DNA from: Candidatus Magasanikbacteria bacterium CG10_big_fil_rev_8_21_14_0_10_36_32 | GTDB taxonomy: Bacteria; Patescibacteriota; Patescibacteriia; Magasanikbacterales; GWA2-37-8 | DNA: 64,000 bases | NCBI GenBank assembly: GCA_002778465.1 | Contig: PFBV01000005.1 | Location: 7,534-71,533 of the forward strand | Reading direction: 5' to 3' | Part shown: positions 32,092-59,351 of the stretch, piece after piece | Layout: every line of letters starts with the position of its first letter | How positions within the stretch are numbered: the stretch's first letter is position 1 | Program-made: the position numbers and the translations under genes | The notes under the pieces: generated by a model | Databases searched by the model: none | What the model saw: only the letters and a program-made list of their open reading frames with translations | Told to the model about the DNA's origin: nothing

Positions 32092-32162
32092 TCTTGCCTT
32101 TTTTTTTCGCTTATGTTAGAATAATTACGCTCTTTTTTGAGCTTAATTTTTATATCAAAAAC

Positions 32163-34904
32163 ATGTCATTTCTTAATAAAATTTTTGGTGATCCGAATAT
32201 AAAAGTAATTAAAGAAATTCAGCCGATTGTTGATAAAATTAATTCGCTGGAACCGGAAATTCAGAAGTTGAGTTTGGAAGGTCTAAAAAATAAAACTGAA
32301 GAGTTTAAAGACCGTTTGATAAAAGGTGAGTCTTTGGACGATATTTTACCTGAAGCCTTTGCGGTTGTCAGGGAAACTTCAAAACGCGTAACAGGTATGC
32401 GTCATTTTGATGTTCAGTTGATTGGCGGTGTGGTTTTACACCGTGGACAAATTTCAGAAATGCGTACTGGTGAGGGAAAAACTTTGGTAGCGACTTTACC
32501 TACTTATTTAAACGCCTTGTCAGGCAAAGGTGTTCATTTGGTAACAGTTAATGATTATTTGGCAAAACGTGATGCTGTTTGGATGGGTCAAATTTATGAT
32601 GCTCTAGGTTTGTCTATCGGTATTATTCAGCAACAGTTGACTTCTTATAAATATTCTGCCACCGCCAAAGCCAATGTTGGTGAAGGAAGTGAAACCGACA
32701 AAGAGAGAGATGTTATTGGTATGTTTAAAATTGAACATGATTATTTGTTGCCTTGTTCGCGTAAAGAAGCTTATCAGTGTGATATTACTTATGGCACGAA
32801 TAATGAATTTGGGTTTGATTATTTGCGTGACAATATGGTTCAAAATTTGGACGATATGTCTCAACGTGAATTGAATTTTACCATTGTTGATGAAGTTGAT
32901 TCTATTTTGATTGATGAAGCTCGGACACCTTTGATTATTTCCGCGCCGGCAGAAAAAGCAACAGACATATATTATAAATTTGCCGAATTGGTTGAACGCT
33001 TAAAAGAAAATGAAGATTATAATGTTGATGAAAAAATGCGTTCGGCGACTTTAACCGATGCTGGTATTAAGAAAATGGAACAGTGGTTGGGAGTAGATAA
33101 TATTTATGCCGAAGGAGGTGTTGGCACTGTTCATCATGTTGAGTCGGCTTTGAGAGCTAAAGTTCTTTTTAAGCGTGATCGCGATTATGTGGTAGAAAAC
33201 GGCGAAGTTATTATTGTTGATGAATTTACCGGAAGAAAGATGATTGGCCGACGTTATAGTGAAGGTTTACATCAGGCGATTGAGGCAAAAGAGGGTGTAG
33301 AAATTCAACGTGAAAGTCAGACAATGGCTACTGTTACCTTTCAAAATTATTTTAGAATGTACAAAAAAATATCAGGCATGACCGGTACGGCGGTGACTGA
33401 AGCCGAAGAATTTGGGAAAATTTATAATTTGGAAGTTGTAGTTATTCCAACTAATAAAAAAATTTGTCGTTTAGACCATTCAGATCGCATTTATCGAACC
33501 GAGGAGGCAAAATATCGGGCGATTGCTAAACATGTTAAAGAATTACAAGATAAAGGACAGCCGGTTTTAATTGGTACTATTTCAGTGGATAAAAATGAAG
33601 CTTTGAGTTTATTTTTAGAACAAGAGGGTATTAAACATGAGATTTTGAATGCTAAAAATCATGAGAGGGAAGGCGAAATTGTGGCACAGGCTGGCCGTGC
33701 AGGAGCGGTTACTTTAGCTACCAATATGGCAGGTCGTGGTGTGGATATTATTTTGGGCGGAAATCCACCAGATAAAGAATTGTCGGAAAAAGTTAAAACA
33801 AATGGCGGTTTATTCGTTATCGGCACTGAACGACACGAGAGTCGTCGTATTGATAATCAATTACGAGGCCGTGCTGGACGTCAGGGTGATCCAGGTGAAA
33901 CTCAATTTTATCTTTCCACCGAAGATGATTTAATGAGAATTTTTGCCGGTGATCGAATTCGGGCAGTTATGCAGACATTACGTGTGCCGGAAGATATGCC
34001 GATTGAACAAAAAACCATTACTCGCATTATTGAATCGGCGCAGAAAAAAGTGGAAGGTTTTCATTTTGATACTCGTAAACATTTATTGGATTATGATGAT
34101 GTGTTAAATCGTCATCGCGAAGTGGTTTATGGAAAACGTCGGCAAATTTTGGAAATTTATGATATAGAAAAAAGATTATTGGTTGAACCAAATGCTGCTA
34201 AACCGGAAAAATCATTGCGTCAGTTGATTTTAGATATGGTGGAAGCGGAAATTGAACAGGTGGTATCTTTTCATACCAATACAGAAGATGCAAGTGAGTG
34301 GAATTTAAAAGAAATTGGAGAAACAATAACTACAATTTTTCCGTTAACAAATGCGGAAAAAATAGAGATAACAAATTTTGGACAAAAAAGCGCATTAAAA
34401 TTGGAATCAATTGAACATCGAACAAAAATTATTGAATATTTGGTGCAATTAGCTGGTCAAAAATATGAAGAAATGTTGGTTAAAGCAACTAATCAGCCCG
34501 AGTTAATGGTAGAAATAGAAAAACAGTTATTGCTTCGTTCGGTGGATAATTTATGGATTGAACATTTAGTGGCAATTGATTATTTGCGTACAGGCATTGG
34601 TTTGCGTGGGTATGGACAGCGTGATCCGTTAGTTGAATACAAAAAAGAAACTTATCGGATGTTTAATGAATTGTTGAATTTGATACAGAAGGAAGTTGTG
34701 TATTCTGTTTTCAAAATTAGTTATGGAATTCAAATGGCACCAAGCGTTATGCAAAAAGGTAATTTGGTTTTGACTGGCGCGGAGAAAGAACAATCGCCGG
34801 TCTCTTCTGGAAAAATTAAAGATGCTGAAGGTAAAACCATTGGCCGCAATGATCCATGTCTGTGCGGATCAGGCAAGAAATTTAAGAAATGTTGTGGATC
34901 ATAA
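32163..34904 (+). CDS. secA: Preprotein translocase ATPase SecA with a C-terminal zinc-binding tail.
   Basis: Begins MSFLNKIFGDPN. DEAD-like motor motifs are present. The C-terminal motif is CLCGSGKKFKKCCG. The start was taken at the internal ATG after the upstream terminator. Confidence 0.9.
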   Translation: MSFLNKIFGDPNIKVIKEIQPIVDKINSLEPEIQKLSLEGLKNKTEEFKDRLIKGESLDDILPEAFAVVRETSKRVTGMRHFDVQLIGGVVLHRGQISEMRTGEGKTLVATLPTYLNALSGKGVHLVTVNDYLAKRDAVWMGQIYDALGLSIGIIQQQLTSYKYSATAKANVGEGSETDKERDVIGMFKIEHDYLLPCSRKEAYQCDITYGTNNEFGFDYLRDNMVQNLDDMSQRELNFTIVDEVDSILIDEARTPLIISAPAEKATDIYYKFAELVERLKENEDYNVDEKMRSATLTDAGIKKMEQWLGVDNIYAEGGVGTVHHVESALRAKVLFKRDRDYVVENGEVIIVDEFTGRKMIGRRYSEGLHQAIEAKEGVEIQRESQTMATVTFQNYFRMYKKISGMTGTAVTEAEEFGKIYNLEVVVIPTNKKICRLDHSDRIYRTEEAKYRAIAKHVKELQDKGQPVLIGTISVDKNEALSLFLEQEGIKHEILNAKNHEREGEIVAQAGRAGAVTLATNMAGRGVDIILGGNPPDKELSEKVKTNGGLFVIGTERHESRRIDNQLRGRAGRQGDPGETQFYLSTEDDLMRIFAGDRIRAVMQTLRVPEDMPIEQKTITRIIESAQKKVEGFHFDTRKHLLDYDDVLNRHREVVYGKRRQILEIYDIEKRLLVEPNAAKPEKSLRQLILDMVEAEIEQVVSFHTNTEDASEWNLKEIGETITTIFPLTNAEKIEITNFGQKSALKLESIEHRTKIIEYLVQLAGQKYEEMLVKATNQPELMVEIEKQLLLRSVDNLWIEHLVAIDYLRTGIGLRGYGQRDPLVEYKKETYRMFNELLNLIQKEVVYSVFKISYGIQMAPSVMQKGNLVLTGAEKEQSPVSSGKIKDAEGKTIGRNDPCLCGSGKKFKKCCGS

Positions 34905-36856: not shown

Positions 36857-37427
36857 ATGAAAATAATACTAGGTTCACAATCAAAGGGTCGGCGGGGAGT
36901 TTTAGAAAAAATGGGATACGAATTTGAAGTAATGCCGTCTAATATTGATGAAGAAGAAATCAGATTAGAAAATCCGCAGGAATTAACTTTGGCTTTGTCT
37001 TACGTAAAAACTAACGCTTTATTGTCAAAAATTAAAGAACCGGCAATTTTAATCACTTCTGATCAAGTAGTCTGTTGGAATGGAACGGCTTCGTGAAAAA
37101 CCGGAAAACGAAGCTCAGGCAAGAGAATATTTATCTCGGGCAGTTGAATATCCTTTGGAAACGGTTACGGCTGTAGTGATTACTAATACTGTCACAGGTA
37201 AACAAGAGGAAGGAATAGATGTTGCAAAAGTTTATTTTTTAGATATTCCGGAAGAAACAATTGAAAAATTAATTAAAGAAGGACATATTTTTCATCAGGC
37301 TGGAGGATTTTCTATTGATGACCCGTTAGTGAGAGATTTTGTCAAACAAATTGAAGGGGAGCCGGAAAGTATTATTGGTTTGCCGAAAAAATTAACTGAA
37401 AGATTGATAGGGGAAGTTAAAAAGTGA
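36857..37427 (+). pseudogene. maf: Maf-family nucleoside triphosphate pyrophosphatase, split by a +1 frameshift near 37075-37085.
   Basis: The N-terminal half MKIILGSQSKGRRGVLEKMGYEFEVMPSNIDEE...ITSDQVVCWNG ends at TGA. The C-terminal half ERLREKPENEAQAREYL...IGLPKKL continues in the next frame. Together they form one Maf-length protein. Confidence 0.6.
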
Positions 37428-37507: not shown

Positions 37508-39553
37508 ATGGCTCATAAAAAAACATTTATTAAAACCATAACCAAAACTCAGGCTCGCTGGAGAGTGGCCGGTATTGCGATTTTGGCTATTGTTTGTTTG
37601 TTTTTAGTTTTACCAAATTATGTTAATGTTGGATTAAATTGGGTTAACAATCAGGTTAATTTAGGTTTACCATTATTACCGGAGTCAAGTTTTAATTTGG
37701 GTTTGGATTTGCAAGGAGGAGCTCATTTGGTTTATAAGGCTGATGTGATCAAAGTCGCGCCAGATCAGCGTGCAGCTTCAGTTGAAGGTGTCCGAGATGT
37801 GATTGAAAGAAGAGTTCGTGGCGGTTTGGGTGTGGCTGAACCTTTGGTTCAAACCACTAAATTTGGAGAAGAACACAGAGTGATTGTGGAGTTGCCAGGT
37901 GTTACCAATGTTTCTGATGCTATTCAAATGATTGGTGAAACTCCTGTTTTGGAATTTAAAGAAGAAAATAATGATCCACCAAGAGAGTTAACTGTTACGG
38001 AGAAGAAAGATTTAGATGAATTTAATCGATTGGCTGATAAAAAAATTAGAGAAGCGAAAAATGCTTTATACAGAATGAATTTTGAAGAAGCGGTTGGGCA
38101 ATATTCTGAAGATGAAGCCAGTAAAAAAGAATCAGGTAAAATCGGATTTATTACAGAAACAGGCTATCCAGAAATGTATAGCTGGGCTAAAACAGCTGCT
38201 ATTGGTGATGTTTCCGGTGTTATTAAAACAGCCGACGGTTATAGTATAGTTAAAAAATTATCTGAACGAACCGGAGAAAAATCAATCCAAGCATCACATT
38301 TGTTAATTTGTTATAGAGGCGCTGAACGTTGTGATGCAACTTATACCAAATCGTCTGCCAAAGAAAAAATTGAAGAACTTCAAAAACAGATAAATAAAGA
38401 TAATTTTGTTGAATTAACTAAACAATATTCTACCGAACCGGGCGCCCAAGAAGGTGGCGGTGATTTAGGTTTATTTAAAAAAGGAGAAATGGTGCCGGCG
38501 TTTGAAAATGCCGTTTGGGATTTGCCAATGAACACTGTTTCGGAAGTGATTGAAACAGAATTTGGTTATCATTTAGCTATTAAAATAGGAGAAGAACAGA
38601 AAATGGAGTATGAGTTGGCAAAAATTTTTGTTCCTACAAAAAGTGTAACAGACATTATTCCTCCAGTTGGTGAATGGAAGATTACCGGTTTAGACGGGTC
38701 ATTGTTAAAACGAGCTGAGGTTGTACAGAATAGTCAAATTGGAGAAATTCAAGTTAGCTTGACCTTTAACGATGAAGGCGCAAAATTATTTGGCGATATT
38801 ACCAGACGCAATATTGATAAGCCTGTGGCTATTTTCTTGGATGGTGAAGCAATCAGTATACCGAAAGTCAACGAACCAATCCTGGATGGTAGTGCGGTGA
38901 TTACCGGTGGATTTACTTGGGATGAAGCTAAATTATTAGCGCAGCGTTTAAATTCTGGTGCATTGCCTGTTCCTGTTGAATTAATTAGTCAACAGAAAAT
39001 TGATGCCGCTTTGGGTGTTGATTCGTTGACTACCAGTTTTAAGGCCGGATTGATTGGCTTATTACTGGTTATTATATTTATGGTATTCTATTATCGTTTA
39101 CCGGGTTTAATTTCAGTCTTAGCTTTATTAATTTACGCGGCTATCACATTAGCCATCTTTAAGGTTATTGGTGTTACCTTGACCCTTTCTGGAATTGCAG
39201 GTTTTATACTATCTGTTGGTATGGCAGTAGACGCGAATGTGTTGGTATTTGAACGTTTAAAAGAAGAATTAAAACAGGGTAAAAGCTTAAAACCGGCAAT
39301 GGAAGAAGCTTTTGTTCGCGCTTGGACTTCTATTCGTGACAGTAATGTTACCACATTAATCAGTTGTGCATTTTTAATTTGGATGGACATTGGTTTTGTT
39401 CAGGGTTTTGCCGTTACGTTGGCAATTGGTATTTTAGTTAGTATGTTTACTGCTATTATTGTCACTCGAAATTTAATGCGTGTATTTTTTAGCTGTTTCA
39501 AAGACAAAGCTAATTGGTTGTTTTTGGGAAGCTCGTCTAATAAAGAACAATAA
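37508..39553 (+). CDS. secD: Protein translocase subunit SecD with a parvulin-type (PpiC) peptidyl-prolyl isomerase domain inserted in the periplasmic region.
   Basis: SecD N-terminus LNLGLDLQGGAHLVY. Parvulin signature IQASHLLICY...GGGDLGLFKKGEMVPAFENAVWDLPMNTVSEVIETEFGYHLAIKI. C-terminal SecD/F transmembrane bundle. Confidence 0.8.
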   Translation: MAHKKTFIKTITKTQARWRVAGIAILAIVCLFLVLPNYVNVGLNWVNNQVNLGLPLLPESSFNLGLDLQGGAHLVYKADVIKVAPDQRAASVEGVRDVIERRVRGGLGVAEPLVQTTKFGEEHRVIVELPGVTNVSDAIQMIGETPVLEFKEENNDPPRELTVTEKKDLDEFNRLADKKIREAKNALYRMNFEEAVGQYSEDEASKKESGKIGFITETGYPEMYSWAKTAAIGDVSGVIKTADGYSIVKKLSERTGEKSIQASHLLICYRGAERCDATYTKSSAKEKIEELQKQINKDNFVELTKQYSTEPGAQEGGGDLGLFKKGEMVPAFENAVWDLPMNTVSEVIETEFGYHLAIKIGEEQKMEYELAKIFVPTKSVTDIIPPVGEWKITGLDGSLLKRAEVVQNSQIGEIQVSLTFNDEGAKLFGDITRRNIDKPVAIFLDGEAISIPKVNEPILDGSAVITGGFTWDEAKLLAQRLNSGALPVPVELISQQKIDAALGVDSLTTSFKAGLIGLLLVIIFMVFYYRLPGLISVLALLIYAAITLAIFKVIGVTLTLSGIAGFILSVGMAVDANVLVFERLKEELKQGKSLKPAMEEAFVRAWTSIRDSNVTTLISCAFLIWMDIGFVQGFAVTLAIGILVSMFTAIIVTRNLMRVFFSCFKDKANWLFLGSSSNKEQ

Positions 39554-40500: not shown

Positions 40501-40534
40501 AACCCCGTATCAAATTTTGTGGTGATGCGGGGTT
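40501..40534 (+). terminator. Intrinsic terminator (aaccccgtatcaaattttgtggtgatgcggggtttt).
   Basis: About 10-bp stem with one G-U pair, then a T-run, after secF. Confidence 0.5.
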
Positions 40535-40582
40535 TTAATATGTGTTATTTTGTGGTACAATATAATTGAATTTAATATATTT

Positions 40583-40745
40583 TATGAGTGATAACGCGGT
40601 TAAACATTTGGTAGCTATGTTTGCCACCATAATTTGTGTGCTGGCTTATCTAGCCGGTTATTTTTCCGGTCAATTGGATTGGTGGTGGACAGTATTTTCC
40701 GTATTAATAATTTACGGCGGAATTTACCGTTTGATGAGTAAATAA
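40583..40745 (+). CDS. Unannotated small ORF of about 53 aa with two hydrophobic helices. A candidate VirB3/VirB2-like small membrane protein immediately upstream of the VirB4-N-domain paralog. Coordinates are accurate to about one nucleotide.
   Basis: Translation MSDNAVKHLVAMFATIICVLAYLAGYFSGQLDWWWTVFSVLIIYGGIYRLMSK. It is absent from the ORF track because it is shorter than 60 aa. It ends 15 nt before the 40760 gene. Confidence 0.35.
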
Positions 40746-40759
40746 TTAAGCGTCAGAAT

Positions 40760-42142
40760 ATGCCGCCGATTATTTTTGACACACCTTTTGGTTTTAGTAT
40801 TGATCTGTCTTTTTGGCAGGATTTTTTCAGCATGTCCATTTCACAACAGTTGAAAGGTTTTTTTGTTTTTATTATTTGGTGGGCGGTAGCGTTAATATTA
40901 TTTAATTTTGCGTTACAAAAATGGGTGGCTTGCCGGCAAAAAAAATATGTCAGTGATTGGCAGTGGTCTGTTTTAGCGGTGGATGTACCAGCTTTGTATG
41001 TTCAATCACCAAAAGCAGTAGAACAAATTTTTGTTAATTTAAGCGGCGCGGCTTTTTCACCAAAATTATTTGATAAATATTGGACAGGTAAAATACCAAA
41101 ATGGTTTAGTTTTGAAATTATAAGTATTGAAGGTTATATTCAGTTTTTGGTTCGTACGGAATCGGAATTTCGTGATTTGGTTGAAGCGGCTATTTATGCC
41201 CAATATCCGGAAGCAGAAATTACTGAGGTAGAGGATTATGTTGGAAATATTCCAGATATGTTTCCAAATGAAACGCATGAAATTGCTGGTGCGGAATTCA
41301 CTTTGTTACAAAATGAAGCTTATCCGATTCGTACTTATCCGCATTTTGAATATAAAATCAGTAAAGATGTTGTTTTTAGTGATCCAATGGCGGCAATTTT
41401 GGAAAATTTTTCACGCATCGGTTCAGGAGAAAATTTTTGGATGCAATTGGTGGTTAAACCAGCGGATAACAGTTGGAAGAAAAATGGAATTGATTTAGTT
41501 AAAAAAATAATTTCCAACAAAAAAGAATCTAAAGCGCCGTCAATTGTTTCGGTGGTTGGAGGTTTGCCGGAAGTTGCATTGAAAACAGCTATTCAAATTT
41601 GGAATTGGGAATTTGAAACAGAAAAGAAGGAAGAAACTTCTGGTAAAGTTTCAGATTTAACGCCGGGAATGAAACAGGTAGTGGAAGCAATTGAAGAAAA
41701 AATTTCTAAACTTGGTTTTTATTCTCGTTTAAGAGTTTTGTATTCGGCAAAAAAAGAAGTTTTTAATCCACGCAAATGTTTGGCTGGTTTAGTAGGTTCT
41801 TTAAATCAGTTCTATATCGCTGATCGTAATGGTTTGGCGGCGCAAAAAGCCGGAGGTTCCGATTTGGTCTTATCTTTTAAACAAAGAAAATTAAAATTTT
41901 TTAAGAGCTCCAAGGTAAAAGCTGTGAATGAACCCTATGTTTTAAATATTGAAGAGTTGGCTACTTTGTGGCATTTTCCGTTACCTGACGTAAAAACACC
42001 TCTAGTACAAAAATCATCAGCTAAACGCGGTGAACCGCCGACAAATTTACCTGTGGATAGTCCTGATAGTTTACCAACCAAAGATGAAGGTATTACGGAT
42101 GATTTACCAGTTGTTCCACCAGAAGAATTGCCATATGCCTAA
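40760..42142 (+). CDS. Paralog of the N-terminal (non-ATPase) region of the VirB4/TrbE-like ATPase encoded at 54997-57552. One N-terminal transmembrane helix. No P-loop.
   Basis: IYAQYPEAEITEVEDY...LVVKPADNSWKKNGIDLVKKI...EELATLWHFPLPDVKTP aligns with IHAQYPHAEITEETDY...YVVRPASTEWRKDGVRIIREI...EEMASFWHLPTSLTETP of the 851-aa protein. Confidence 0.55.
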   Translation: MPPIIFDTPFGFSIDLSFWQDFFSMSISQQLKGFFVFIIWWAVALILFNFALQKWVACRQKKYVSDWQWSVLAVDVPALYVQSPKAVEQIFVNLSGAAFSPKLFDKYWTGKIPKWFSFEIISIEGYIQFLVRTESEFRDLVEAAIYAQYPEAEITEVEDYVGNIPDMFPNETHEIAGAEFTLLQNEAYPIRTYPHFEYKISKDVVFSDPMAAILENFSRIGSGENFWMQLVVKPADNSWKKNGIDLVKKIISNKKESKAPSIVSVVGGLPEVALKTAIQIWNWEFETEKKEETSGKVSDLTPGMKQVVEAIEEKISKLGFYSRLRVLYSAKKEVFNPRKCLAGLVGSLNQFYIADRNGLAAQKAGGSDLVLSFKQRKLKFFKSSKVKAVNEPYVLNIEELATLWHFPLPDVKTPLVQKSSAKRGEPPTNLPVDSPDSLPTKDEGITDDLPVVPPEELPYA

Positions 42143-43097
42143 AAAATGGTTTGAATTTAAAAAACCGATTATTGCTTTAGCTCCAATGGCTGATTATACA
42201 GATCAGCCATTTTGTTTATTGTGTCGAAAAATTTCCGGCAACGACTTTGTTATTTTTAGGGAAATGGTAAGTGCTGAAGCGATTGTTCGTCAAAACAAAA
42301 AGACTTTGAAGATGTGTAAAATTAACAATAAAGAACGTCCGGTTGTCATACAAATTTTTGGTGCCAAATCGGAAACAATAGTTGAGGCGGCCAAAATTAT
42401 TGTTAAAAAATTTAAACCGGACGGAATTGATATAAATATGGGTTGTCCAGTAGCGAAAATTGCTGGTAAAAATATGGCCGGCGCATCGCTAATGAAAGAT
42501 ACGGTTAGAGCGGCGAAGATTGTTAAAGCGTTAAAAATTGCTAAATTAGGGGTGCCAATATCAGTTAAAACTCGTTTAGGTTGGAATGATAAAAAAGAAA
42601 TTTTAAAGTTTGCCCCAATATTAGAAACAGCTGGCGCGGATTTAATTTCTATTCATGGACGGACTAAATCACAAGGTTATTCTGGCGAGGTTGATTGGTC
42701 AATGATCGGACAAGCGGTTAAAATGGTTAAAATTCCAGTATTGGCGAATGGTAATATTCGTACTGTTGAAGATATAAAAAAATGTTTGGACATTACTAAA
42801 GCGGCCGGCGTAATGATAGGTCGTGGAGCAATGGGAAAACCATGGATATTCCGAGAAATTCAAAATTTAAAATCAAAAATTAAAAATAATAAAGAAGAAA
42901 TAAAAAAAATTGTTTTGCAACATGCTAAATTACATTTTGAACATTATGGCGAAAGAAGTATGGTTACTTTCCGCAAGCATTTGGCTTGGTATTTTAAAGG
43001 GGATCAAATTGTGGAATTAGAAAATTTAAAAGATTTAAGAATCAAATTAATGAAAATTAATTCTTTATCAGAATTAGAAGAATTGTTGAAATTTTAA
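42135..43097 (+). CDS. dusB: tRNA-dihydrouridine synthase.
   Basis: IALAPMADYTDQPF and the TIM-barrel FMN motifs. The start at MPKKWFEF overlaps the upstream stop by 8 nt. Confidence 0.8.
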   Translation: MPKKWFEFKKPIIALAPMADYTDQPFCLLCRKISGNDFVIFREMVSAEAIVRQNKKTLKMCKINNKERPVVIQIFGAKSETIVEAAKIIVKKFKPDGIDINMGCPVAKIAGKNMAGASLMKDTVRAAKIVKALKIAKLGVPISVKTRLGWNDKKEILKFAPILETAGADLISIHGRTKSQGYSGEVDWSMIGQAVKMVKIPVLANGNIRTVEDIKKCLDITKAAGVMIGRGAMGKPWIFREIQNLKSKIKNNKEEIKKIVLQHAKLHFEHYGERSMVTFRKHLAWYFKGDQIVELENLKDLRIKLMKINSLSELEELLKF

Positions 43098-43994: not shown

Positions 43995-45971
43995 ATGTGC
44001 GAAAAAATGAAGCGATTTTGGTTGTCAATCAGTGTGATTATTGTGATTTTGATGTTTGTGAGTTGTGGTACTGTGACAGCTTTTGTTCCGCCGGATATCA
44101 GTTTGTCGGTTCTTGATTCTGACATGTTTGACAATGGTGTCATAAATCCACCGTCATCAAAAGTTCCCAGCAGCGTAGCGGTTCCCTTTGAGGCTTTGGA
44201 AACCGAACAGTTACTCAAAAATTTGGTTATTCCCGCCTGTAATTATCGTGATATCACTCTTCGTTTGGCTGATCCGGGAGTTGAAATTCCAGAAGTGGTA
44301 AACACAAACCCGCCAAATTATAAAATTGATGATGAACGACAGTTTTGGGTGTCTAATGTTGACACTGGAAAGTATTACAGTATTATCGCCAAGTTGGTGT
44401 ATAAGACTGAGCATGCTTATATTTGGTTGGAAAAAGGAGCCAAAACTCAATTGGTAAGTCTGAAAAAGGCGGCTGATTTATGGGATAAAAAGTATTATCC
44501 CACAGATCGTGAGTTTTTCGGCAGTGAATGGTCGCCCGGCGTGGATAATGATGCCCGTATTAATTGGCTTATCTCAGATAAAATGGGTGAACATGCGGCT
44601 GGTTATTACAGTAGCATGGATGAATATAGTAAATTAGTTAACAAATATTCCAATGAAATGGAAATGTTCTATCTCAGTTCTGAAAATAATCCGGCCGCTG
44701 TTCCGTATTTTAATGGAGTATTGGCGCATGAGTTTGCTCACATGATTCAATGGTATCACCATTCCAATCAAGCAAATTGGATTGATGAGGGTTTGGCCGA
44801 GTTAGCTGTTCAAATTAATGGTTTAGATCCTGGTTTGAAGCGAATTCGGTTTGCATATAATCCGGACATTCAGCTAAATTCTTGGCCTGAATTGGATAGT
44901 GCTACCGCTTATTATGGTGCCGCCTATATGTTTATGTCTTATTATTTGGATCGTTTTGGAAAAATTGCTACTCAAGCGTTGATTAGTAGCACATCATACA
45001 GTACAGCAGCAATAGACGAAGCTTTGAAAGATAAAAACATTACTTTCAATCAGGTGTTTGCTGATTGGACAATCGCTAATTATATTAATAATTCGAATAT
45101 TGGTAATGGTGAGTACGCTTATCGTACCATTCAACCAACTCGTTTTAAAGCTTGTCAGAAGATTCAGCCAAGTGATTATCCGATAGATATTACTGATAGT
45201 GTTGCTCAATACGGAACTGATTATATTGAAATTTCAGGACATACTGATTTGGAAGTAAAATTTACTGGTGATTCAACTGTTGGTTTGACTGCAGTTACCG
45301 CTCACAGTGGAAAATATATGTGGTGGGGTGGTTCAAATAATGCCAGCGACGCAACCTTGACACGGACATTTGATTTGTCCGGCGCTGAAAAGGCAACATT
45401 GACTTTTTGGACATCGCATGATATTGAAGAAGGATACGATTATGTTTTTGTAGAAGCTTCCGTTGATGGTAAACATTGGACAACTTTACAGGGTACTAAC
45501 ACTGTAATTGATAATCCTAACGGAGCTAATTACGGTTTTGGTTATACTGGTACAAATAATGGTTGGGTTCAAGAAAAAATTAATCTAAGCCAATATGCCG
45601 GAAATAAAGTTCAAATTCGTTTTGAATATATTACTGATGCAGGATTAACCAAGTCTGGTTTTTTCTTGGATGATATTGCAATTCCTGAAATTGGTTATAT
45701 GTCTAATGTAGAGAAGAATAATGGTGGTTGGACAGCGAGAGGATTTGTCCGTAACGCCAATATTTTGCCACAATACTGGTCAATTCAACTTATTACTGTT
45801 GGTTTGACTACTACGGTTGAGAAATTGCCAGTAACCCAAAATGCTACAGGAAATTGGACTGTTCATTTTAAAAAGGATGATACGCGTTATACTGTGTTGG
45901 TAATCAGCGGTTTGACACCGATCACATTGGAACGACCAAGTTATAAGTTGGTTGTTAATATTAAAAAGTAA
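43995..45971 (+). CDS. Secreted zinc metallopeptidase (HExxH...E gluzincin) with a C-terminal beta-sandwich domain resembling a pre-peptidase C-terminal domain.
   Basis: GVLAHEFAHMIQWYH followed by NWIDEGLAELA. N-terminal signal or lipoprotein-like MKRFWLSISVIIVILMFVSCG. The C-terminal part reads YDYVFVEASVDGKHWTTLQG...GWVQEKINLSQYAGNKVQIRFEY. Confidence 0.6.
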   Translation: MCEKMKRFWLSISVIIVILMFVSCGTVTAFVPPDISLSVLDSDMFDNGVINPPSSKVPSSVAVPFEALETEQLLKNLVIPACNYRDITLRLADPGVEIPEVVNTNPPNYKIDDERQFWVSNVDTGKYYSIIAKLVYKTEHAYIWLEKGAKTQLVSLKKAADLWDKKYYPTDREFFGSEWSPGVDNDARINWLISDKMGEHAAGYYSSMDEYSKLVNKYSNEMEMFYLSSENNPAAVPYFNGVLAHEFAHMIQWYHHSNQANWIDEGLAELAVQINGLDPGLKRIRFAYNPDIQLNSWPELDSATAYYGAAYMFMSYYLDRFGKIATQALISSTSYSTAAIDEALKDKNITFNQVFADWTIANYINNSNIGNGEYAYRTIQPTRFKACQKIQPSDYPIDITDSVAQYGTDYIEISGHTDLEVKFTGDSTVGLTAVTAHSGKYMWWGGSNNASDATLTRTFDLSGAEKATLTFWTSHDIEEGYDYVFVEASVDGKHWTTLQGTNTVIDNPNGANYGFGYTGTNNGWVQEKINLSQYAGNKVQIRFEYITDAGLTKSGFFLDDIAIPEIGYMSNVEKNNGGWTARGFVRNANILPQYWSIQLITVGLTTTVEKLPVTQNATGNWTVHFKKDDTRYTVLVISGLTPITLERPSYKLVVNIKK

Positions 45972-46016: not shown

Positions 46017-46112
46017 TACATTGACAAATACTTAAAAAGGTGATATAGTACTATGTTCTTTACAATAAAACTCTAGTTGGGTAAAAACCAACTACGCCAA
46101 AGGAGGCGTAAA

Positions 46113-47015
46113 ATGGACGAATTTTTGGAAATGAGAACACACCAGAGAAAAGATTGGTTAATTAAGTTAGCAGTTGTAATTATATTATCTGGTTGTCTCG
46201 TAGTGTTTTGTTGTTGGGTTTTTCCTCAGATGAGCTTGTCACCAAGCGTAACTAAGGCATTTATACCTGAAACACTGCCGCCGGCACAGTCTGATCCGAT
46301 GGATAGGTTGGAAAATGATTTGCTCTCTGCTTCGTTCGTTGTGTATGGTTTTTCAAAAGATGGAGAACACAAAAACATTCAATGTTCGGCTACAGTTTTT
46401 GAAAAAGAAGGCAATATTTATCGTTTAATAACTTCTGCTCATTGTTTGGTTGAAGATGAACAATACGATGGTATTGTTAGAGTGTTGCCTTATAATATTT
46501 TCATCGCCCATAACAGTTTGGACAGTCTAATTTTTTCTGCTCGACTGGTTGCTATTGGTTTTCAAGGTCGCTATGATGATTTTGCTGTATTGCAAGCGGA
46601 AATTGTAGACGATACGATTCCTGCTATTCCATTAGCCAAAAGTGACCCGGTGATAGGCGAAGAAGTGGTGAATGTTTCTTTTCCGTCTCTTGTTGGTCGG
46701 CAGTTGGTTAGAGGAATAACAATGATTGAACAAGTAGAAATAAGTTCGGGTGAGATGAAGGGGGATAAAGTTACTGTTTTTGATTTAACTTCTGGTTCTG
46801 GTTCGTCCGGTTCGGCCATTGTTAGTCGAGAACAAAAAGCCATTGTTGGTGTTTTGACTGGTGGTTATTCACAAGAAGGCCAGTTGTTAAATGAAACAAC
46901 TGTAGGTTTGCCGGTTAGCAAGTTTCGTATTTTTTGGGAAGCGGTTAAGGCCGATGAATACCCGTGGTACCAGTCATCCGAAGAGTCGGTTGGTAGTGGA
47001 GACTTTTTATATTAA
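46113..47015 (+). CDS. Secreted trypsin-like serine protease, paralog 1 of 6 (S1/Trypsin_2-like).
   Basis: AGGAGG ribosome-binding site 8 nt upstream. N-terminal transmembrane or signal segment. Catalytic motifs TSAHC (His), DDFAVL (Asp) and GSGSSGSAIV (Ser). Confidence 0.65.
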   Translation: MDEFLEMRTHQRKDWLIKLAVVIILSGCLVVFCCWVFPQMSLSPSVTKAFIPETLPPAQSDPMDRLENDLLSASFVVYGFSKDGEHKNIQCSATVFEKEGNIYRLITSAHCLVEDEQYDGIVRVLPYNIFIAHNSLDSLIFSARLVAIGFQGRYDDFAVLQAEIVDDTIPAIPLAKSDPVIGEEVVNVSFPSLVGRQLVRGITMIEQVEISSGEMKGDKVTVFDLTSGSGSSGSAIVSREQKAIVGVLTGGYSQEGQLLNETTVGLPVSKFRIFWEAVKADEYPWYQSSEESVGSGDFLY

Positions 47016-47241: not shown

Positions 47242-48162
47242 ATGGAAAAGAAGATGTTTGGTTTCGTTATGTTTATTATGGCATTCGTTTGCGCAATGAT
47301 GCTCAGCGGGTGTGGAGCAGTCAGTTTCTATAGCGGTTCCAATACCGTGATCAATGCCAGTGGCAATAGCCATTCCGTCAGTGTCCTAGAGAAGGATATG
47401 GAATCGGCCGTGGCTCTGCTTTACGCCAAGAAGGATGACGGGCAGCTGCGCATGTTCTGTACAGCAACCGCTTTTGAGCGTTCGGGTAAGACTTACCGTT
47501 TTGTTACCGCCGCACATTGTGTCGCCGAAGATATCAACGGCATGGTGGAACTGGTACCGTACCAGTGGTTTATCAGTTTCGACGAACCGGGCGTCAAGAC
47601 ATTTTATCCTGCCAAACTGCTCGGCGTTGGTTATCAGAGTCGCGGTGATGATTTCGCCGTACTGGAAACCACCCTGGATCGCCAGATTCCGGTTATTCCG
47701 ATGTCAGCTACCGATGCCGAACTCGGTGAACAGGTAAGTAATGTCGCTTCGCCGCTCGGTTTGGGCAAGCAGCTCTTCCGCGGACATGTGACCACTGTTT
47801 ATATGGACAGGCCTGTTGTAGGTGCCGGTCTTAATTGGACAGGTGCAACATTGCTTCAAATCAGTTGCGGACCCGGATCTTCCGGTTCGTCTGTAGTAAG
47901 TCAGAACAGACACACTATTGTTTCTATTCTGGTCGGTATGATTTACCGAGGTCCGGCGGTGTTCATTGTTTCCATTCCGGTAACAAAGTTCAACCGTTTT
48001 TGGAGAGATATTCAAACCAATAAGTACCCTTGGTACGCGCCTGCCTTCAATGCCAACGGAATTCCCGTTTCTACAAGCAGCAGCCAGCGAGATCTTTCGA
48101 ACTTTATGAATCGGATTGATCGTGGTCTGTCGGTTGTTTTGGAACCGGAACCCACTAAGTAA
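47242..48162 (+). CDS. Secreted trypsin-like serine protease, paralog 2, with a lipoprotein-like signal.
   Basis: GGAGGG ribosome-binding site. Signal MFGFVMFIMAFVCAMMLSGCG. Catalytic motifs TAAHC, DDFAVL and CGPGSSGSSVV. Confidence 0.65.
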   Translation: MEKKMFGFVMFIMAFVCAMMLSGCGAVSFYSGSNTVINASGNSHSVSVLEKDMESAVALLYAKKDDGQLRMFCTATAFERSGKTYRFVTAAHCVAEDINGMVELVPYQWFISFDEPGVKTFYPAKLLGVGYQSRGDDFAVLETTLDRQIPVIPMSATDAELGEQVSNVASPLGLGKQLFRGHVTTVYMDRPVVGAGLNWTGATLLQISCGPGSSGSSVVSQNRHTIVSILVGMIYRGPAVFIVSIPVTKFNRFWRDIQTNKYPWYAPAFNANGIPVSTSSSQRDLSNFMNRIDRGLSVVLEPEPTK

Positions 48163-49235: not shown

Positions 49236-50195
49236 ATGGACAACAGAACGTTTAAACAAATTTGTCTTATTGCCGGCATTACATTGGTCGGCTCCATGCT
49301 TGTGGTGTTGTTGTGTATGGTGGCTTTTATGGCTGGTTCTATGAATAATCGCTTGGTTGTTCAACAGCCAATTTATGGCTACGCGCCTCCGCCGTCGATT
49401 TCCGAATCAGAGGAATCGCTTGCGCAGTTGGAAAATGACGCAATCAATGCTACTGCCTTGCTATATTTTGAAAACAAATCCGGCGGAATGGATTTTTATT
49501 GTACCGCCACCGCTTTTGAGAGGGTGGGTCATTACTATAAATTTCTTACCGCCGCGCATTGTGTTTCCAGTGACGATACTGTCAATAAAATGGTTCGTAT
49601 TAAGCCGGGGAAATGGTATATCAATTTTGATATGCCTAACAATAATGAATTTCATAGAGCGAACGTACTCGCTGCCGGTTATATGTCAGACGGAGATGAT
49701 GTAGCGGTATTGGGGGCTTATCTGGATGATTTTAACCCGATTATTAATTTGTCTCAGGAAGACGCTGTAATCGGTGAACGCATAATTAATATTGCTGGTC
49801 CGCGTGACCTTGGAAAGCAGCTTATTCGGGGTAATATCAGCCAAGTAACTCCTGGGAGAGGTTCGTTTTTGAGTGATAGAATAATGATTCAGATTCATAG
49901 CGGTGGTGGTTCGTCCGGTTCGGCGATTATTAGCCAGAATAAGAAAGCAATTGTTGGTGTATTGGTAGCTGGTTTCGGTGGTTTTTTTCAAATGGAACCG
50001 TTTTACGATGTAACTGTAGCTGTTCCTATTGGAAAGTTTCATCGTTTTTGGGCAGCTATCAAAGCGAATAATTATGAACATTTTAATTTTGAAAGTTATG
50101 AGCCGACAAATCAGCTTTCAAAGGATATGGACACTCCGGTTGATTCCGACACTGGAACAGATGCTGGAGTTGATTGTTCTAATTCGGACAAATAA
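49236..50195 (+). CDS. Secreted trypsin-like serine protease, paralog 4.
   Basis: GGGAGG ribosome-binding site. N-terminal transmembrane segment. Catalytic motifs TAAHC, DDVAVL and SGGGSSGSAII. Confidence 0.65.
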   Translation: MDNRTFKQICLIAGITLVGSMLVVLLCMVAFMAGSMNNRLVVQQPIYGYAPPPSISESEESLAQLENDAINATALLYFENKSGGMDFYCTATAFERVGHYYKFLTAAHCVSSDDTVNKMVRIKPGKWYINFDMPNNNEFHRANVLAAGYMSDGDDVAVLGAYLDDFNPIINLSQEDAVIGERIINIAGPRDLGKQLIRGNISQVTPGRGSFLSDRIMIQIHSGGGSSGSAIISQNKKAIVGVLVAGFGGFFQMEPFYDVTVAVPIGKFHRFWAAIKANNYEHFNFESYEPTNQLSKDMDTPVDSDTGTDAGVDCSNSDK

Positions 50196-54996: not shown

Positions 54997-57552
54997 TTAC
55001 AAACGTGGCCCGGAGTCAACACCAATTTCTCTTTTACTTGTCGCCCCAAGTTTAGAACGTTCCATAATTTCTTCTTCAACAATTTCTCTCGGGCGGCCAT
55101 ATTTTAAACGGGATAATTCTTTGATTGCCGCTGCCAGTTCGGTATTGCCTTTTTGTGGCGGATAGGGACTAAAATTAAACGGTTTAGCTGCCGTGTTGTC
55201 AATTAATAATTTTAAATAGACAGTGTATTGTTCAATATTGATTAAATCATAAGCTCCAAAAACAGGTGCAAATTCTTTAGCTAATATTTCAGCATCTTCA
55301 GTGCCAATGCGATAAACAGCAATCGTACCGGCATTTCCCAAGACAGCATCACGAACAGTGGATTTTCCTTTATTATCTTCCAGTTGTTTTAAATATTGAT
55401 GGGCAATAGTAAGATTTAATCGGTATTTTCGAGCTTCAGAAAGAATGGTGGCAATAGATTCGGTAATAAAGTTTTGAAATTCGTCTATATATAAGAAAAA
55501 GTCGTGACGTTGGTCTTCAGGAAGAGAAGCTCGTTCCATTGCTGCCATTTGCAGTTTGGAAACAATAATCATGCCCAATAAATTGGAATTAATTTCTCCA
55601 ACCAAACCTTTGGCCAAATTAACTAATAATATTTTTTTCTTATCCATTATTTCACGGAAATTAAAACCGGAATGTGTTTGTCCGACAATATTGCGAACCA
55701 TTGAATTTTCCACAAATCGTCCGACTTTGGAAATTAAATAACCAAGCATTTCCGATTTGTGAAAGTCGGAGGTTTTTGCCATTTCTTGATTCCAAAAATT
55801 TAAAACCACCGGATCTTTAATTTTCTTTTTCCATTCAGTCACAAAAGTATCATCAGTAAACATTCTTGGAATCTCAGCAATGGTACCGGGATTTTCATTG
55901 TCTGACATTAAAGTCAGCATCACATTTCTCATTTGATGTTCAAACATCGGTCCAATCATTGATGGATCGGTGACCAATTTATAAAAAATTGATATCATTT
56001 CTTGATTAATAAAATCTTTTTGATCCTCTGTTTTTGCTTCCAACATATTTAAACCAATCGGTCGTTCTACATCGGACGGATTAAAATAAATCACATCTTC
56101 TGCTCGTTCTTTTGGTACATGCTGTAAAACATACTCAACAAAATCTCCGTGCGGATCTATAACACAAACACCCTCGCCGTTTTGTACATCTTGAACGGCC
56201 AAATTTTGTAATAATACGGTTTTACCGCTGCCTGATTTACCAACCACATAGAAATGACGTCTTCGATCAGCTCTTTTCATTTTTACGATAGTTTCTTCAC
56301 CTCGATAAACAGTTCTCCCAAGAGTAATGCCTTCCCGTGGCATATTTACTGGCGGAGGGGCTTTACGAGCTCCAAGCCAGTTAATATGAGGTGTTTCAGT
56401 TAAAGATGTCGGTAAATGCCAAAAACTGGCCATTTCCTCAGTATTGGTTATCATAGATAAACCGGGTCGCATTGTTCGGTGAATTGATTCACGAATTAAT
56501 GTGTCTGGTTTTTTTGGAATAACTGCACCAAAAGAATTACCGTAACGGTAAATGTTATATTGATTAAATGAGTTTAAGATATTTTCTAAGTTTAATTGAG
56601 CTTTTTCGTTGGAGGATGAAGTACTGACAACACGAATTGTAATTTCCAATCCGCCGTGGCTGATTTTATCTTCCATTCCTTTTAACATTTCTTCTTCCAT
56701 TTGTGTCATTCGGTAAGATTCAGTGGGGGATTGTTCCTTGTTTTGTTTTTTTGGTTTAGACCATTTTTTAAATAAGTTTGATATACCGGTTCGGCGCACT
56801 ACATTTTCAAATTTTTCTCCGGCGCGTATTTCTCTAATTATTCTTACTCCGTCTTTTCGCCATTCGGTTGAAGCCGGACGAACGACGTATTGAATAATAG
56901 CCCCCTCATTTTCTACTAGTTTGCTTAAGGGATTTAATAATCCCACAAGTGGATCACTGTCCATTTGTTTATATGTTTTGAACGGAAAAACTGATTTTTG
57001 TTTGAACCACAGGTAAGCGCCGACTATGTGGCTATCCGGTTTGAAAATATTATAATCGGTTTCTTCGGTAATTTCCGCGTGTGGATACTGAGCGTGGATT
57101 TGTTGAGAAACAAAATCTTTCATTTTATCAGGTACGGCCACATAAAAAGATATTTTACTGTCTCTGACCACCACTTCAAATGAAAAAAGTTCTTTTGGTC
57201 CCAAAAACCATGACATAAATCCTTGTTCGCGCCGCAATCCGGCAAGGGAAGAAAATAAAGTGGCAGCTATGGCAATTTGCTCACGATTTTGACTAACGGT
57301 ATCAGTGCCAGCATTTAAAGTTTCACCTTTTTTTTCTTTTGGTACGCGGATAAGTATGATGGTTTTGTGAAAAGCCTTACTATCAAGATTTTTTATTTGA
57401 AGAATTTTTCTAATCAAATTAAAAACAATAATTAAAGCGGCAACAAAAAGTGGAATCAGTAATAACCAAAGCCAATCCGCGCTTGGTGTTGGAATTGTTG
57501 AGGCGCTTAAAGACATTGTGTCAAGCGGATTGATTGGAAATTGATTTTCCAT
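54997..57552 (-). CDS. VirB4/TrbE/CagE-family (T4SS-type) ATPase with an N-terminal transmembrane helix and a large N-terminal domain.
   Basis: Walker A HFYVVGKSGSGKTVLLQN. Walker B-like FFLYIDEFQNF. The RKYRLNLTIAHQ motif matches the VirB4 RK...TQ signature. N-terminal transmembrane segment WLWLLLIPLFVAALIIVFNL. Confidence 0.6.
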   Translation of the reverse strand: MENQFPINPLDTMSLSASTIPTPSADWLWLLLIPLFVAALIIVFNLIRKILQIKNLDSKAFHKTIILIRVPKEKKGETLNAGTDTVSQNREQIAIAATLFSSLAGLRREQGFMSWFLGPKELFSFEVVVRDSKISFYVAVPDKMKDFVSQQIHAQYPHAEITEETDYNIFKPDSHIVGAYLWFKQKSVFPFKTYKQMDSDPLVGLLNPLSKLVENEGAIIQYVVRPASTEWRKDGVRIIREIRAGEKFENVVRRTGISNLFKKWSKPKKQNKEQSPTESYRMTQMEEEMLKGMEDKISHGGLEITIRVVSTSSSNEKAQLNLENILNSFNQYNIYRYGNSFGAVIPKKPDTLIRESIHRTMRPGLSMITNTEEMASFWHLPTSLTETPHINWLGARKAPPPVNMPREGITLGRTVYRGEETIVKMKRADRRRHFYVVGKSGSGKTVLLQNLAVQDVQNGEGVCVIDPHGDFVEYVLQHVPKERAEDVIYFNPSDVERPIGLNMLEAKTEDQKDFINQEMISIFYKLVTDPSMIGPMFEHQMRNVMLTLMSDNENPGTIAEIPRMFTDDTFVTEWKKKIKDPVVLNFWNQEMAKTSDFHKSEMLGYLISKVGRFVENSMVRNIVGQTHSGFNFREIMDKKKILLVNLAKGLVGEINSNLLGMIIVSKLQMAAMERASLPEDQRHDFFLYIDEFQNFITESIATILSEARKYRLNLTIAHQYLKQLEDNKGKSTVRDAVLGNAGTIAVYRIGTEDAEILAKEFAPVFGAYDLINIEQYTVYLKLLIDNTAAKPFNFSPYPPQKGNTELAAAIKELSRLKYGRPREIVEEEIMERSKLGATSKREIGVDSGPRL

Positions 57553-57553
57553 G

Positions 57554-58123
57554 CTAAAGTTGATTTTTATTTTTTAGACCTATAATGTAATCGGTTTTTA
57601 TTTTTGCCTCTTGTTCAAGAAAAAAACGGTTTACGCCGGGAAGCATATATAACCATTCTAAAATTAATCTAAATATTTTTTTTACTTTAATTTTGGTAGC
57701 GTGCAGCAGTTCGCTTATTTTATCCGCTGTTTCCTCGCCTTTTATTTTAAATTCTTGTTGGGCGATAGGGGAGAGTTTTTCGTATGATTCCCGAATTCCT
57801 TCCTCCATTATTTTTTCCACCTTTAATGCTAATTCGTCTCGGATTATCCGTGTCGGCGGGATAATTTTTTTCTTTTTAAAAGGCAGTTTGGAAAGTAATG
57901 ATTTTTCCTGTGTGGCCGATTTTGTTTCAGGAAATGATTTTTTTTCGTTTGGCTCTGTTTCCTTCTCATTATTGGTTATTTCCGCGGTTGGAATATTCAA
58001 AGAATCCGGCTTTGTTTCAATGGCCGGGTAGCGTTCAATCTCAGGAATTATATTCTCCTGTTTTTTGATATCCATAACAATATTAATGATATTATTATAC
58101 CATATTATATGAAATGAGGACAA
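57554..58123 (-). CDS. Hypothetical charged or coiled-coil protein, co-transcribed upstream of the VirB4-like ATPase.
   Basis: Abuts the ATPase start with a 1-nt gap. Lys/Glu-rich. No motif. Confidence 0.4.
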   Translation of the reverse strand: MSSFHIIWYNNIINIVMDIKKQENIIPEIERYPAIETKPDSLNIPTAEITNNEKETEPNEKKSFPETKSATQEKSLLSKLPFKKKKIIPPTRIIRDELALKVEKIMEEGIRESYEKLSPIAQQEFKIKGEETADKISELLHATKIKVKKIFRLILEWLYMLPGVNRFFLEQEAKIKTDYIIGLKNKNQL

Positions 58124-59228: not shown

Positions 59229-59261
59229 AAGATCGCCTTGTTGCAACTTGGCGATCTTTTT
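59229..59261 (+). terminator. Intrinsic terminator (aagatcgccttgttgcaacttggcgatctttt).
   Basis: 9-bp stem plus T-run after corA. Confidence 0.5.
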
Positions 59262-59351
59262 AAATTGACTAAATACTTGTCATGTGCTAAGTTACTTTTG
59301 GTGTTCTTTAAAAATTATTCAGCCAAAAAGTCACTTTGGTCGGAGGAAACA

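Follow-up and report, generated by a model that had tools for sequence, protein, structure and literature searches.

A conserved ATPase-less DUF8128 protein and its 53-residue membrane partner in Magasanikbacteria: a probable half of a split translocation ATPase

Introduction

The genomes of Patescibacteria are tiny, and yet nearly all of them keep VirD4-like ATPases that are unlinked to a type IV secretion system (T4SS) and whose role is unknown (PMC12102498). A chromosomal stretch of 64,000 nucleotides (nt) from Candidatus Magasanikbacteria bacterium CG10_big_fil_rev_8_21_14_0_10_36_32 (contig PFBV01000005.1), with a low GC content of about 36% and referred to below as the window, carries what is probably one such ATPase, of 851 amino acids (aa), and, 13 kb away, a 460-aa protein that resembles its N-terminal part, lacks the ATPase domain and is preceded by a 53-aa membrane open reading frame (ORF). 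The locus thereby raises the question of what a motor-less protein of this kind does, and with which motor. Our analysis indicates that the 53-aa and 460-aa proteins are probably the membrane-proximal, ATPase-less half of a Patescibacteria-wide split translocation ATPase composed of a DUF8128 domain and a VirD4/TrwB-type motor. The transported substrate could be DNA or protein. The argument turns on the following features:

40584..40745 (ATG to stop), forward strand: gene of the 53-aa membrane protein, partner of the DUF8128 protein
40760..42142, forward strand: stand-alone DUF8128 protein of 460 aa, subfamily A (PIT88074.1, locus tag COU29_03610), ATPase-less, with one membrane helix
54997..57552, reverse strand: membrane-anchored ATPase of 851 aa (locus tag COU29_03675), composed of a helix, a DUF8128 subfamily-B domain and a VirD4/TrwB-like motor
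56326-57372, reverse strand: DUF8128 subfamily-B domain of the ATPase, residues 61-409; residues 410-851 form the motor

Homology between the 460-aa protein and the ATPase

Comparison of the two larger proteins by BLASTP aligned residues 116-431 of the 460-aa protein with residues 123-405 of the ATPase (E 5e-29, 26% identity), and the alignment contains the motif blocks IYAQYPEAEITE..DY and EELATLWHFP in the former, opposite IHAQYPHAEITE..DY and EEMASFWHLP in the latter. Alignment of the two family profiles with hhalign, built from 31 homologues of the 460-aa protein and 21 of the ATPase, matched residues 67-435 to residues 61-409 (probability 99.8%, E 8e-28, 335 columns), and judged by both alignments the similarity is far beyond chance. 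The whole-length correspondence with the N-terminal part of the ATPase claimed in a preliminary description of the locus, including the blocks quoted there, was thus borne out for the cytoplasmic part of the protein. About 30 residues separate the end of the homology from the ATPase P-loop (GKSGSGKT, residues 438-445), and the 460-aa protein runs only 25 residues further, so that the same description was essentially right in placing its end where the ATPase domain would begin; neither a P-loop nor a C-terminal Walker A/B ATPase domain was found in the 460-aa protein.

Both proteins have a single hydrophobic segment near the N-terminus (residues 29-56 of the 460-aa protein and 23-54 of the ATPase), with Lys/Arg residues on its C-terminal side. 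In the 460-aa protein the 15 residues before the segment hold no Lys/Arg and the 15 residues after it hold three, the AlphaFold model has a helix at residues 27-65, and W19, W40, F10 and G11 are conserved in the N-terminal region. Since the Lys/Arg residues lie C-terminal to the segment, the N-terminus is predicted to be outside and the shared domain to be cytoplasmic and tethered to the membrane. The protein can be divided as follows:

40844..40927, forward strand: hydrophobic segment, residues 29-56, recognized by hydropathy and flanking charge, after the conserved N-terminal peptide TPFGFSIDLSFWQ
40958..42064, forward strand: DUF8128 domain itself (residues 67-435, the homologous counterpart of ATPase residues 61-409), ending in EPPTNLPV (425-432)
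42116..42139, forward strand: C-terminal peptide PPEELPYA, a second PPxxLP copy and candidate docking peptide

The same type of tail ends 107 of 120 close homologues of the 460-aa protein, and 128 of the 146 stand-alone cluster representatives have a PxxxLP-type motif within their final 12 residues, against a background of 1.6% per sequence window. The linker from the domain into the motor of the fused ATPase is formed by the same motif (APPPVNMP).

The DUF8128 family and its two subfamilies

The precomputed Pfam annotation assigns PF26449, named DUF8128 according to UniRef and contig look-up, to the cluster of the 460-aa protein, to 119 of its 120 listed homologues and to the N-terminal part of the 851-aa ATPase. 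The family is already catalogued but uncharacterised, and our literature search returned no mention of DUF8128 or PF26449. An exhaustive profile search (E <= 1e-3) yielded 3840 DUF8128 clusters at 50% identity; a P-loop is missing from 146 of the best 150, nearly all of which are stand-alone and 420-690 aa long.

Two subfamilies can be told apart by identity. In subfamily A, the 460-aa protein is 38-44% identical to other stand-alone members; in subfamily B, the N-terminal domain of the 851-aa ATPase is 40-48% identical to that of other fused proteins (~858 aa); between A and B identity is only 22-28%. Among the residues invariant across both subfamilies are A147, Q148, D159, Y160, W404, H405, P407, P426, P427 and P431. 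Because the 460-aa protein stands so much closer to the separate-gene type than to the fused one, it is, on these identities, orthologous to the separately encoded half of split systems and no truncated copy of the 851-aa protein. It had been taken for an ATPase-less duplicate; an ATPase-less paralog it is indeed, but not one derived from this ATPase. That it is no truncated pseudogene, as had also been argued, agrees with its membrane helix of its own, with at least 2938 homologues in the database, and with a mean column identity of 50% and 93 invariant residues across 31 sequences of the family.

Split and fused arrangements of domain and motor

Three arrangements of DUF8128 were found: fused to the motor, as a separate gene directly 5' of a domain-less motor (in most other Patescibacteria), and alone, as in the 460-aa protein. 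The split form is seen in the related loci L087 and L089, where the DUF8128 gene is followed by a TrwB-like ATPase of ~580 aa without the domain (581 aa in L087), and in L083, where the domain-less TrwB-like ATPase is cut by the contig end. L085 has the order SecA-SecD-SecF-small ORF-DUF8128-ATPase, the last being domain-less and TrwB-like, with gaps of 2 nt and 1 nt, and in L090 a 320-aa gene follows the DUF8128 gene. Of the metagenome matches to the split motor of L087, 66 had enough upstream DNA to be informative, and 53 of these carry a subfamily-A DUF8128 gene directly 5' of a domain-less ATPase; their common order is SecD-SecF-sigma70_r4/HARE-HTH protein-DUF8128-ATPase. That DUF8128 and the motor are fused in some lineages and encoded side by side in others argues strongly that they work together. 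Compared with the common arrangement, the window keeps the domain gene behind secDF but lacks the sigma/HARE gene, has the 53-aa ORF in addition and has dus in place of the motor.

Which motor would serve the 460-aa protein in Magasanikbacteria can be approached from the same comparisons. The 851-aa ATPase is the sole TrwB-like candidate within the window. The most serious rival is that the pair partners a second, domain-less TrwB-like ATPase elsewhere in the genome, the two genes being merely separated, with the 851-aa ATPase as an independent paralogous machine. Subfamily A is paired with a domain-less motor everywhere else, the 851-aa motor is 45-47% identical to the split motors while metagenome split motors are 56-75% identical to that of L087, and on average about two VirD4-like genes are present per Patescibacteria genome (PMC12102498), all of which would fit this arrangement. 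Against it, a domain-less ATPase is absent within 6 kb in all 80 Magasanikbacteria loci and across the 64-kb window, and proximity to the fused ATPase recurs, its block lying 2-5 kb 3' of the pair in at least 10 of the 80 relatives. We regard a separate motor as possible, though rather unlikely.

The recurrent neighbourhood of secDF suggests a different partner, namely that the pair is an accessory of Sec export and acts with SecDF and no T4SS-type ATPase. The order SecD-SecF-small ORF-DUF8128 is kept in about 72 of the 80 Magasanikbacteria loci, secA lies just upstream in the window (32094-34904) and in L085 and L088, and a connection with secDF is still seen in distant lineages. These distant lineages, however, keep the motor gene with the domain gene, so that the synteny with secDF concerns the whole DUF8128-ATPase unit; the fold matches given below point to VirB4 and EccE and to no Sec component; and a strong hairpin parts secF from the 53-aa ORF:

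40501..40538, forward strand: terminator-like hairpin with a 12-bp stem and a 10-nt loop, then a U-run, between the secF stop (40475) and the 53-aa ORF

The folding energy of this hairpin is -18.3 kcal/mol (z -4.07), and none of 200 shuffled sequences was as stable; it was overlooked in a simple terminator scan because its loop exceeds 8 nt. The hairpin and U-run after secF suggest that the 53-aa ORF, the DUF8128 gene and dus form a transcript separate from secDF. An accessory role in Sec export alone is accordingly an explanation to which we give little weight.

The gene between secF and DUF8128 in many Patescibacteria encodes a ~370-aa protein with Sigma70_r4 and HARE-HTH domains (L087 1200-2294, L089 4655-5827, L090 3262-4374), and it is also present in about 40 of the loci L093-L172. 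It was found neither in the window nor in the 80 Magasanikbacteria loci, in which the 53-aa ORF stands at this position.

The 53-aa membrane protein

The small ORF ends 14 nt before the 460-aa ORF. By tblastn it is found directly 5' of the 460-aa homologue in 78 of the 80 Magasanikbacteria loci, at 39-70% aa identity, with an ATG start in 68 of 77 cases, a length of 52-62 aa and a gap to the next gene of mostly -15 to +25 nt. Divergence within the family amounts to 0.34, 0.23 and 0.57 at codon positions 1, 2 and 3, which is the pattern of translated sequence, and both other forward frames are broken in all 50 copies of equal length. With such coding-type divergence and such tight or overlapping spacing, the ORF is by its sequence a real gene and a conserved partner of the 460-aa protein, as the preliminary description had supposed; the 53-aa sequence given there is exact, and its start at 40583 falls one base before the ATG at 40584. 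The exact product is called in the JGI, Logan and ENA gene sets, and the protein collection lists no NCBI source for it, unlike the 460-aa protein. L085 and L088, two loci at a greater distance, have a homologue as well.

The family has the consensus M.D...RH.VA..AT.I..LAY.AGY.SG..GWWWT.F..LI.YGG.Y..I.K, in which H8, G25, W34, W35 and Y44 are invariant. Hydropathy and inspection by eye show a strong hydrophobic segment at residues 4-29 and a second, Trp-rich one at about residues 33-48. The protein had been likened to VirB3 or pilin subunits on the basis of its position and two predicted helices; no Pfam or NCBIfam model matched it, those of VirB3, PrgI and TrsC included, and comparison of the family with TrsC of pSK41 gave an hhalign probability of 0.2%, so this likeness did not hold at the level of sequence. 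In PADLOC a marginal and generic match of the 53-aa protein to a '2TM effector' (E 0.006) was obtained and none of the 460-aa protein, and the defence reading was rejected.

All 80 loci have an intact frame for the 460-aa gene (48-61% identity), and together with the coding signature of its partner this conservation indicates that the 53-aa and 460-aa genes form a conserved unit on which purifying selection acts. It bears directly on the idea that the adjacent motor was lost or moved and that the 460-aa protein stayed behind as a relic without function. Such a relic would account for the expected downstream motor gene being missing, with dus in its place; the intact frames, the invariant residues, among them motifs common to the fused paralog, and the conserved partner ORF all speak against it, and with a decaying relic excluded by this conservation the explanation is hardly credible.

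Many homologues of the 53-aa protein have a His/Gly-rich terminal extension such as GGHGGGHH or MSGHGGHGHG (L012, L026, L032, L047, L054, L057, L059, L060 and others), and several 460-aa homologues (P0044, P0090, P0099) carry His/Gly-rich inserts in a disordered loop after residue 250. The composition of these extensions and inserts hints at possible metal binding on the cytoplasmic side.

The 851-aa ATPase as a hybrid motor

The motor half of the 851-aa ATPase passes the Pfam cut-offs of the type IV coupling proteins (TrwB, VirD4, TraD), with 45.6 bits for TrwB_AAD_bind over residues 425-773 (cut-off 20.5), 41.7 bits for T4SS-DNA_transf (cut-off 20.1) and 27.9 bits for TraG-D_C (cut-off 22). 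Among NCBIfam models, those of TraD and VirD4 match it best, and TrwB is its only relative of solved structure by sequence. The orthologues of the ATPase bear the NCBI name 'type IV secretion system DNA-binding domain-containing protein'; across 21 of them, mean column identity is 80%. The model VirB4_CagE (TIGR00929) reached 21 bits against a cut-off of 643, in the P-loop region only, and the earlier designation of the protein as a VirB4-like ATPase has to be given up for the motor half, which is VirD4/TrwB-like. The AlphaFold model of this half is poor (predicted local distance difference test, pLDDT, 30-50), and for that reason the motor was assigned to VirD4 over VirB4 from sequence models alone. 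Classical coupling proteins have an N-terminal two-helix membrane domain and no VirB4-like domain. The DUF8128 ATPases differ from them in a VirB4-type domain of ~350 residues, which is placed between helix and motor or supplied by a separate gene, and the 851-aa protein is thus a hybrid, with an N-terminal domain of VirB4 type and a motor of VirD4 type.

A survey of Patescibacteria counted 5713 VirD4-like genes in 2918 genomes, only 148 of them near virB4, and proposed that these ATPases, mostly unlinked to virB4, may be taken over for other functions (PMC12102498). The family of the 851-aa ATPase is probably counted among them.

The motor region (55000-56300, reverse strand) also matches defence models, the best in PADLOC being mad8 of MADS (E 6e-17), followed by HerA; we read these matches as generic HerA/FtsK-type similarity, and a defence system was rejected. 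A Lys/Glu-rich ORF of 189 aa with no obvious hydrophobic stretch (57554-58123, reverse strand) ends 1 nt before the ATPase start. It has no Pfam, NCBIfam or PADLOC match and was not detected in the related loci, most of which end within the ATPase gene.

Predicted fold and comparison with known systems

Sequence searches place DUF8128 apart from the established VirB4 families. Neither CagE_TrbE_VirB, nor NCBIfam VirB4 (TIGR00929), nor NCBIfam TrsD matched the 460-aa protein (E <= 0.01) or any of 31 members of its family (E <= 10), and a search of the PDB with the family profile gave chance matches only (E > 0.5), with no relative of solved structure by sequence. The predicted structure of DUF8128, on the other hand, matches VirB4: in Foldseek, 13 TrwK/VirB4 chains rank first, with E 6e-6 to 2e-3. 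As the 460-aa protein has no P-loop and none is found among its listed fold matches, the match is taken to lie in the VirB4 N-terminal domain, and the predicted fold of DUF8128 appears to be of that type. The designation 'VirB4 N-terminal domain' in the preliminary description may therefore be kept for the predicted fold and not for any family defined by sequence.

The best structural match of both DUF8128 paralogs is the pair of TrwM/VirB3 and the N-terminal domain of TrwK/VirB4 in the inner-membrane complex of the R388 T4SS (PDB 7o42, 7o41, 8rtb), which resembles the locus in having a cytoplasmic, membrane-proximal domain and a membrane partner encoded directly 5', for which two helices are predicted in the case of the 53-aa protein. 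In R388, VirB4 is a hexamer of dimers in which the contact between central and outside subunits is made wholly by N-terminal domains; VirB3, a protein of three helices and ~100 residues, wraps with its two transmembrane helices the central VirB4 N-terminal domain, and the role of the outer subunit is unclear (PMC9259494). A contact made by N-terminal domains alone offers a template for a domain-only subunit. The systems differ in that identity is 5-10% with no CagE_TrbE_VirB signal, and in that the DUF8128 proteins carry a membrane helix of their own. EccE of type VII secretion (ESX-3, ESX-5), compared by fold only, is a weaker structural and conceptual analogue that scores far below VirB4; the rest of the type VII machinery differs.

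In gene logic the closest analogue is TrsC-TrsD-TrsE of the staphylococcal plasmids pSK41/pGO1 (MPF-FATA conjugation system), where a small VirB3-like membrane protein, TrsC, precedes TrsD, which stands alone and is akin to the N-terminal part of VirB4, and the ATPase TrsE (PMC12102498). The same order of small ORF, DUF8128 and ATPase is found in L085, and its domain-ATPase part in the 53 of 66 metagenome loci; in the window, by contrast, dus and no ATPase follows the pair, and no conjugation genes are nearby. At 227 aa, TrsD is also half as long as the 460-aa protein, which carries a membrane helix of its own and whose partner motor is VirD4/TrwB-like, not VirB4-like. One may ask on these grounds whether the 460-aa protein is a TrsD-like accessory of a canonical Patescibacteria VirB4 T4SS encoded elsewhere, the more so as TrsD is the commonest T4SS-type protein in Patescibacteria (2272 homologues) and essential in Southlakia (PMC12102498). 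Comparison of the 460-aa family profile with TrsD of pSK41 gave an hhalign probability of 0.3%, a figure of limited sensitivity with only one TrsD sequence, and no NCBIfam TrsD or TraD model matched. Most TrsD homologues adjoin virB4, and in class ABY1, to which we take the Magasanikbacteria to belong, T4SS loci lie near comF, recG and radA, unlike the window. The gene partner shown in relatives is a TrwB-like motor, and a TrsD-like role is very unlikely.

A further link of DUF8128 plus motor to T4SS is provided by Bacillus phage G, whose gp156 (825 aa) has the same fused DUF8128 and motor; its tblastn match (E 4e-50) covers 89% of the 851-aa ATPase, and hhalign gives the domain a probability of 97.7%. 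The family phrog_5156 matches both window proteins. In the phage, gp156 comes last in a T4SS-like cluster (85916-98228 of phage G), of a kind not seen in the window, with the TrbL/VirB6-like gp153, gp154 and the VirB4-like gp155; gp154 (125 aa) has no Pfam match and is PrgI/VirB3-like by eye only. Identity of the phage proteins is only 20-25%, and gp156 has no hydrophobic stretch in its first 119 residues. In SP-10-like Bacillus phages the homologue is gp203, of 843 aa, and the protein encoded before it has 114 aa and contains hydrophobic stretches. Neither family alignment picked up a relative when run against viral contigs.

A proposed role for the pair

Put together, these results make it probable that the 53-aa and 460-aa proteins form the ATPase-less half of a split machine, and a course of assembly may be proposed. 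The 460-aa protein would work with a TrwB-like motor, most likely the 851-aa ATPase, and would bind it by a domain-domain contact as in the VirB4central-VirB4outside dimer of R388, and so surround the motor hexamer as an outer subunit, or adaptor, that has no ATPase. The PPxxLP tail would dock on the motor in trans, at the place where the linker motif sits in cis, and the 53-aa protein would act as a VirB3-like two-helix membrane clamp on the domain.

Several points weigh against this reading. The motor in the window is 13 kb off, on the other strand and equipped with its own copy of the domain, and it may not need the 460-aa protein; stand-alone subfamily-A proteins elsewhere pair with domain-less motors, one of which could exist outside the window. 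The fold match was obtained with models of moderate confidence (pLDDT 68 and 62), at 5-10% identity and TM-scores of 0.32-0.36, and no sequence method connects DUF8128 to VirB4, TrsD or VirB3. The 53-aa ORF, finally, is missing from most lineages with the split DUF8128-motor pair, including the loci of the sigma/HARE type, and is therefore not a core part.

The arrangement would allow a bolder and much more speculative proposal, namely a phylum-wide, undescribed translocase of DUF8128 and VirD4-type motor that works without the rest of the T4SS and is tied to secDF, and that in Magasanikbacteria has two rings, a hexamer of the 851-aa ATPase surrounded by outer 460-aa subunits, each clamped by a 53-aa protein. 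If true, this two-ring machine would be a natural version of VirB4central/VirB4outside with a motor-less outer subunit.

Apart from this proposal, the results suggest that one family of VirD4-like ATPases comes with a VirB4-type N-terminal domain, fused or separate, as a hybrid of two T4SS motor types, and that split or fused DUF8128 gives this family a defined membrane-proximal partner. DUF8128, with its 3840 clusters, gains structural and genomic context along with a conserved small membrane protein, and the Magasanikbacteria arrangement makes the role of the outer VirB4 subunit testable, as the outer candidate has no ATPase. Within the literature searched, three observations appear to be new: the predicted VirB4-type fold of DUF8128, its systematic pairing with VirD4-type motors by secDF across Patescibacteria, and the Magasanikbacteria trio of fused motor, domain-only protein and 53-aa partner.

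Gene neighbourhood and further observations in the window

The preliminary description saw a cryptic minimal T4SS-like module in the locus. The neighbours of the 460-aa gene are housekeeping genes (secA, secD, secF, dus) and a glycosyltransferase, and the ATPase gene, 13 kb away on the opposite strand, adjoins dnaX, which does not fit such a module. Pfam scans of ~39 of the larger ORFs of the window, with the 3531-aa ORF and several small ORFs unscanned, found no VirB1, VirB4, VirB6, VirB8 or VirB11 gene and no relaxase or T4SS locus; the scans show housekeeping genes, among them secA, secD, secF, dus, dnaX, ftsA and ftsZ. The gene that follows the pair is:

42135..43097, forward strand: dus, tRNA dihydrouridine synthase (Pfam Dus, E 4e-79), also a gene call in L081

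Its ATG overlaps the final 8 nt of the 460-aa gene, and from this overlap the two genes are probably co-transcribed. In 31 of 80 loci dus occurs somewhere in the flank, but only about a dozen have it immediately 3' of the 460-aa gene and on its strand; we take it as operon context outside the machine. A hairpin at 42185-42211 was rejected as a terminator, as it lies inside the dus coding region.

Upstream, SecD (37508-39553, forward strand) has two PPIC-type rotamase (peptidyl-prolyl isomerase) domains inserted in its periplasmic region, an architecture also seen in the related loci L081, L085, L088 and L090. The Maf gene (PF02545) is broken into two ORFs, of 79 aa (36857-37096) and 115 aa (37080-37427), that overlap on the forward strand; gene calls of an independent Logan assembly (L081) have the same split, and a real or programmed frameshift is possible. 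At the start of the window, an ORF of 649 aa (7-1956, forward strand) has an N-terminal T4SS_pilin domain (PF18895, VirB2-like, E 6e-8) and a Big_5 Ig-like domain, and is followed by the giant 3531-aa ORF (1995-12590, forward strand). This T4SS_pilin match, on an unrelated surface-protein ORF, is the sole T4SS-type signature in the window besides the ATPase. Two large ORFs, of 811 aa (21111-23546, forward strand) and 408 aa (13410-14636, forward strand), are without a Pfam match. An InhA-like MAM-domain protein is encoded at 43995-45971, and five paralogous ORFs of ~300 aa for trypsin-like peptidases (Trypsin_2) lie within 15 kb and flank the ATPase block on both sides:

46077-47015, 47242-48162, 49236-50195, 59238-60140 and 60306-61232, forward strand: Trypsin_2 ORFs

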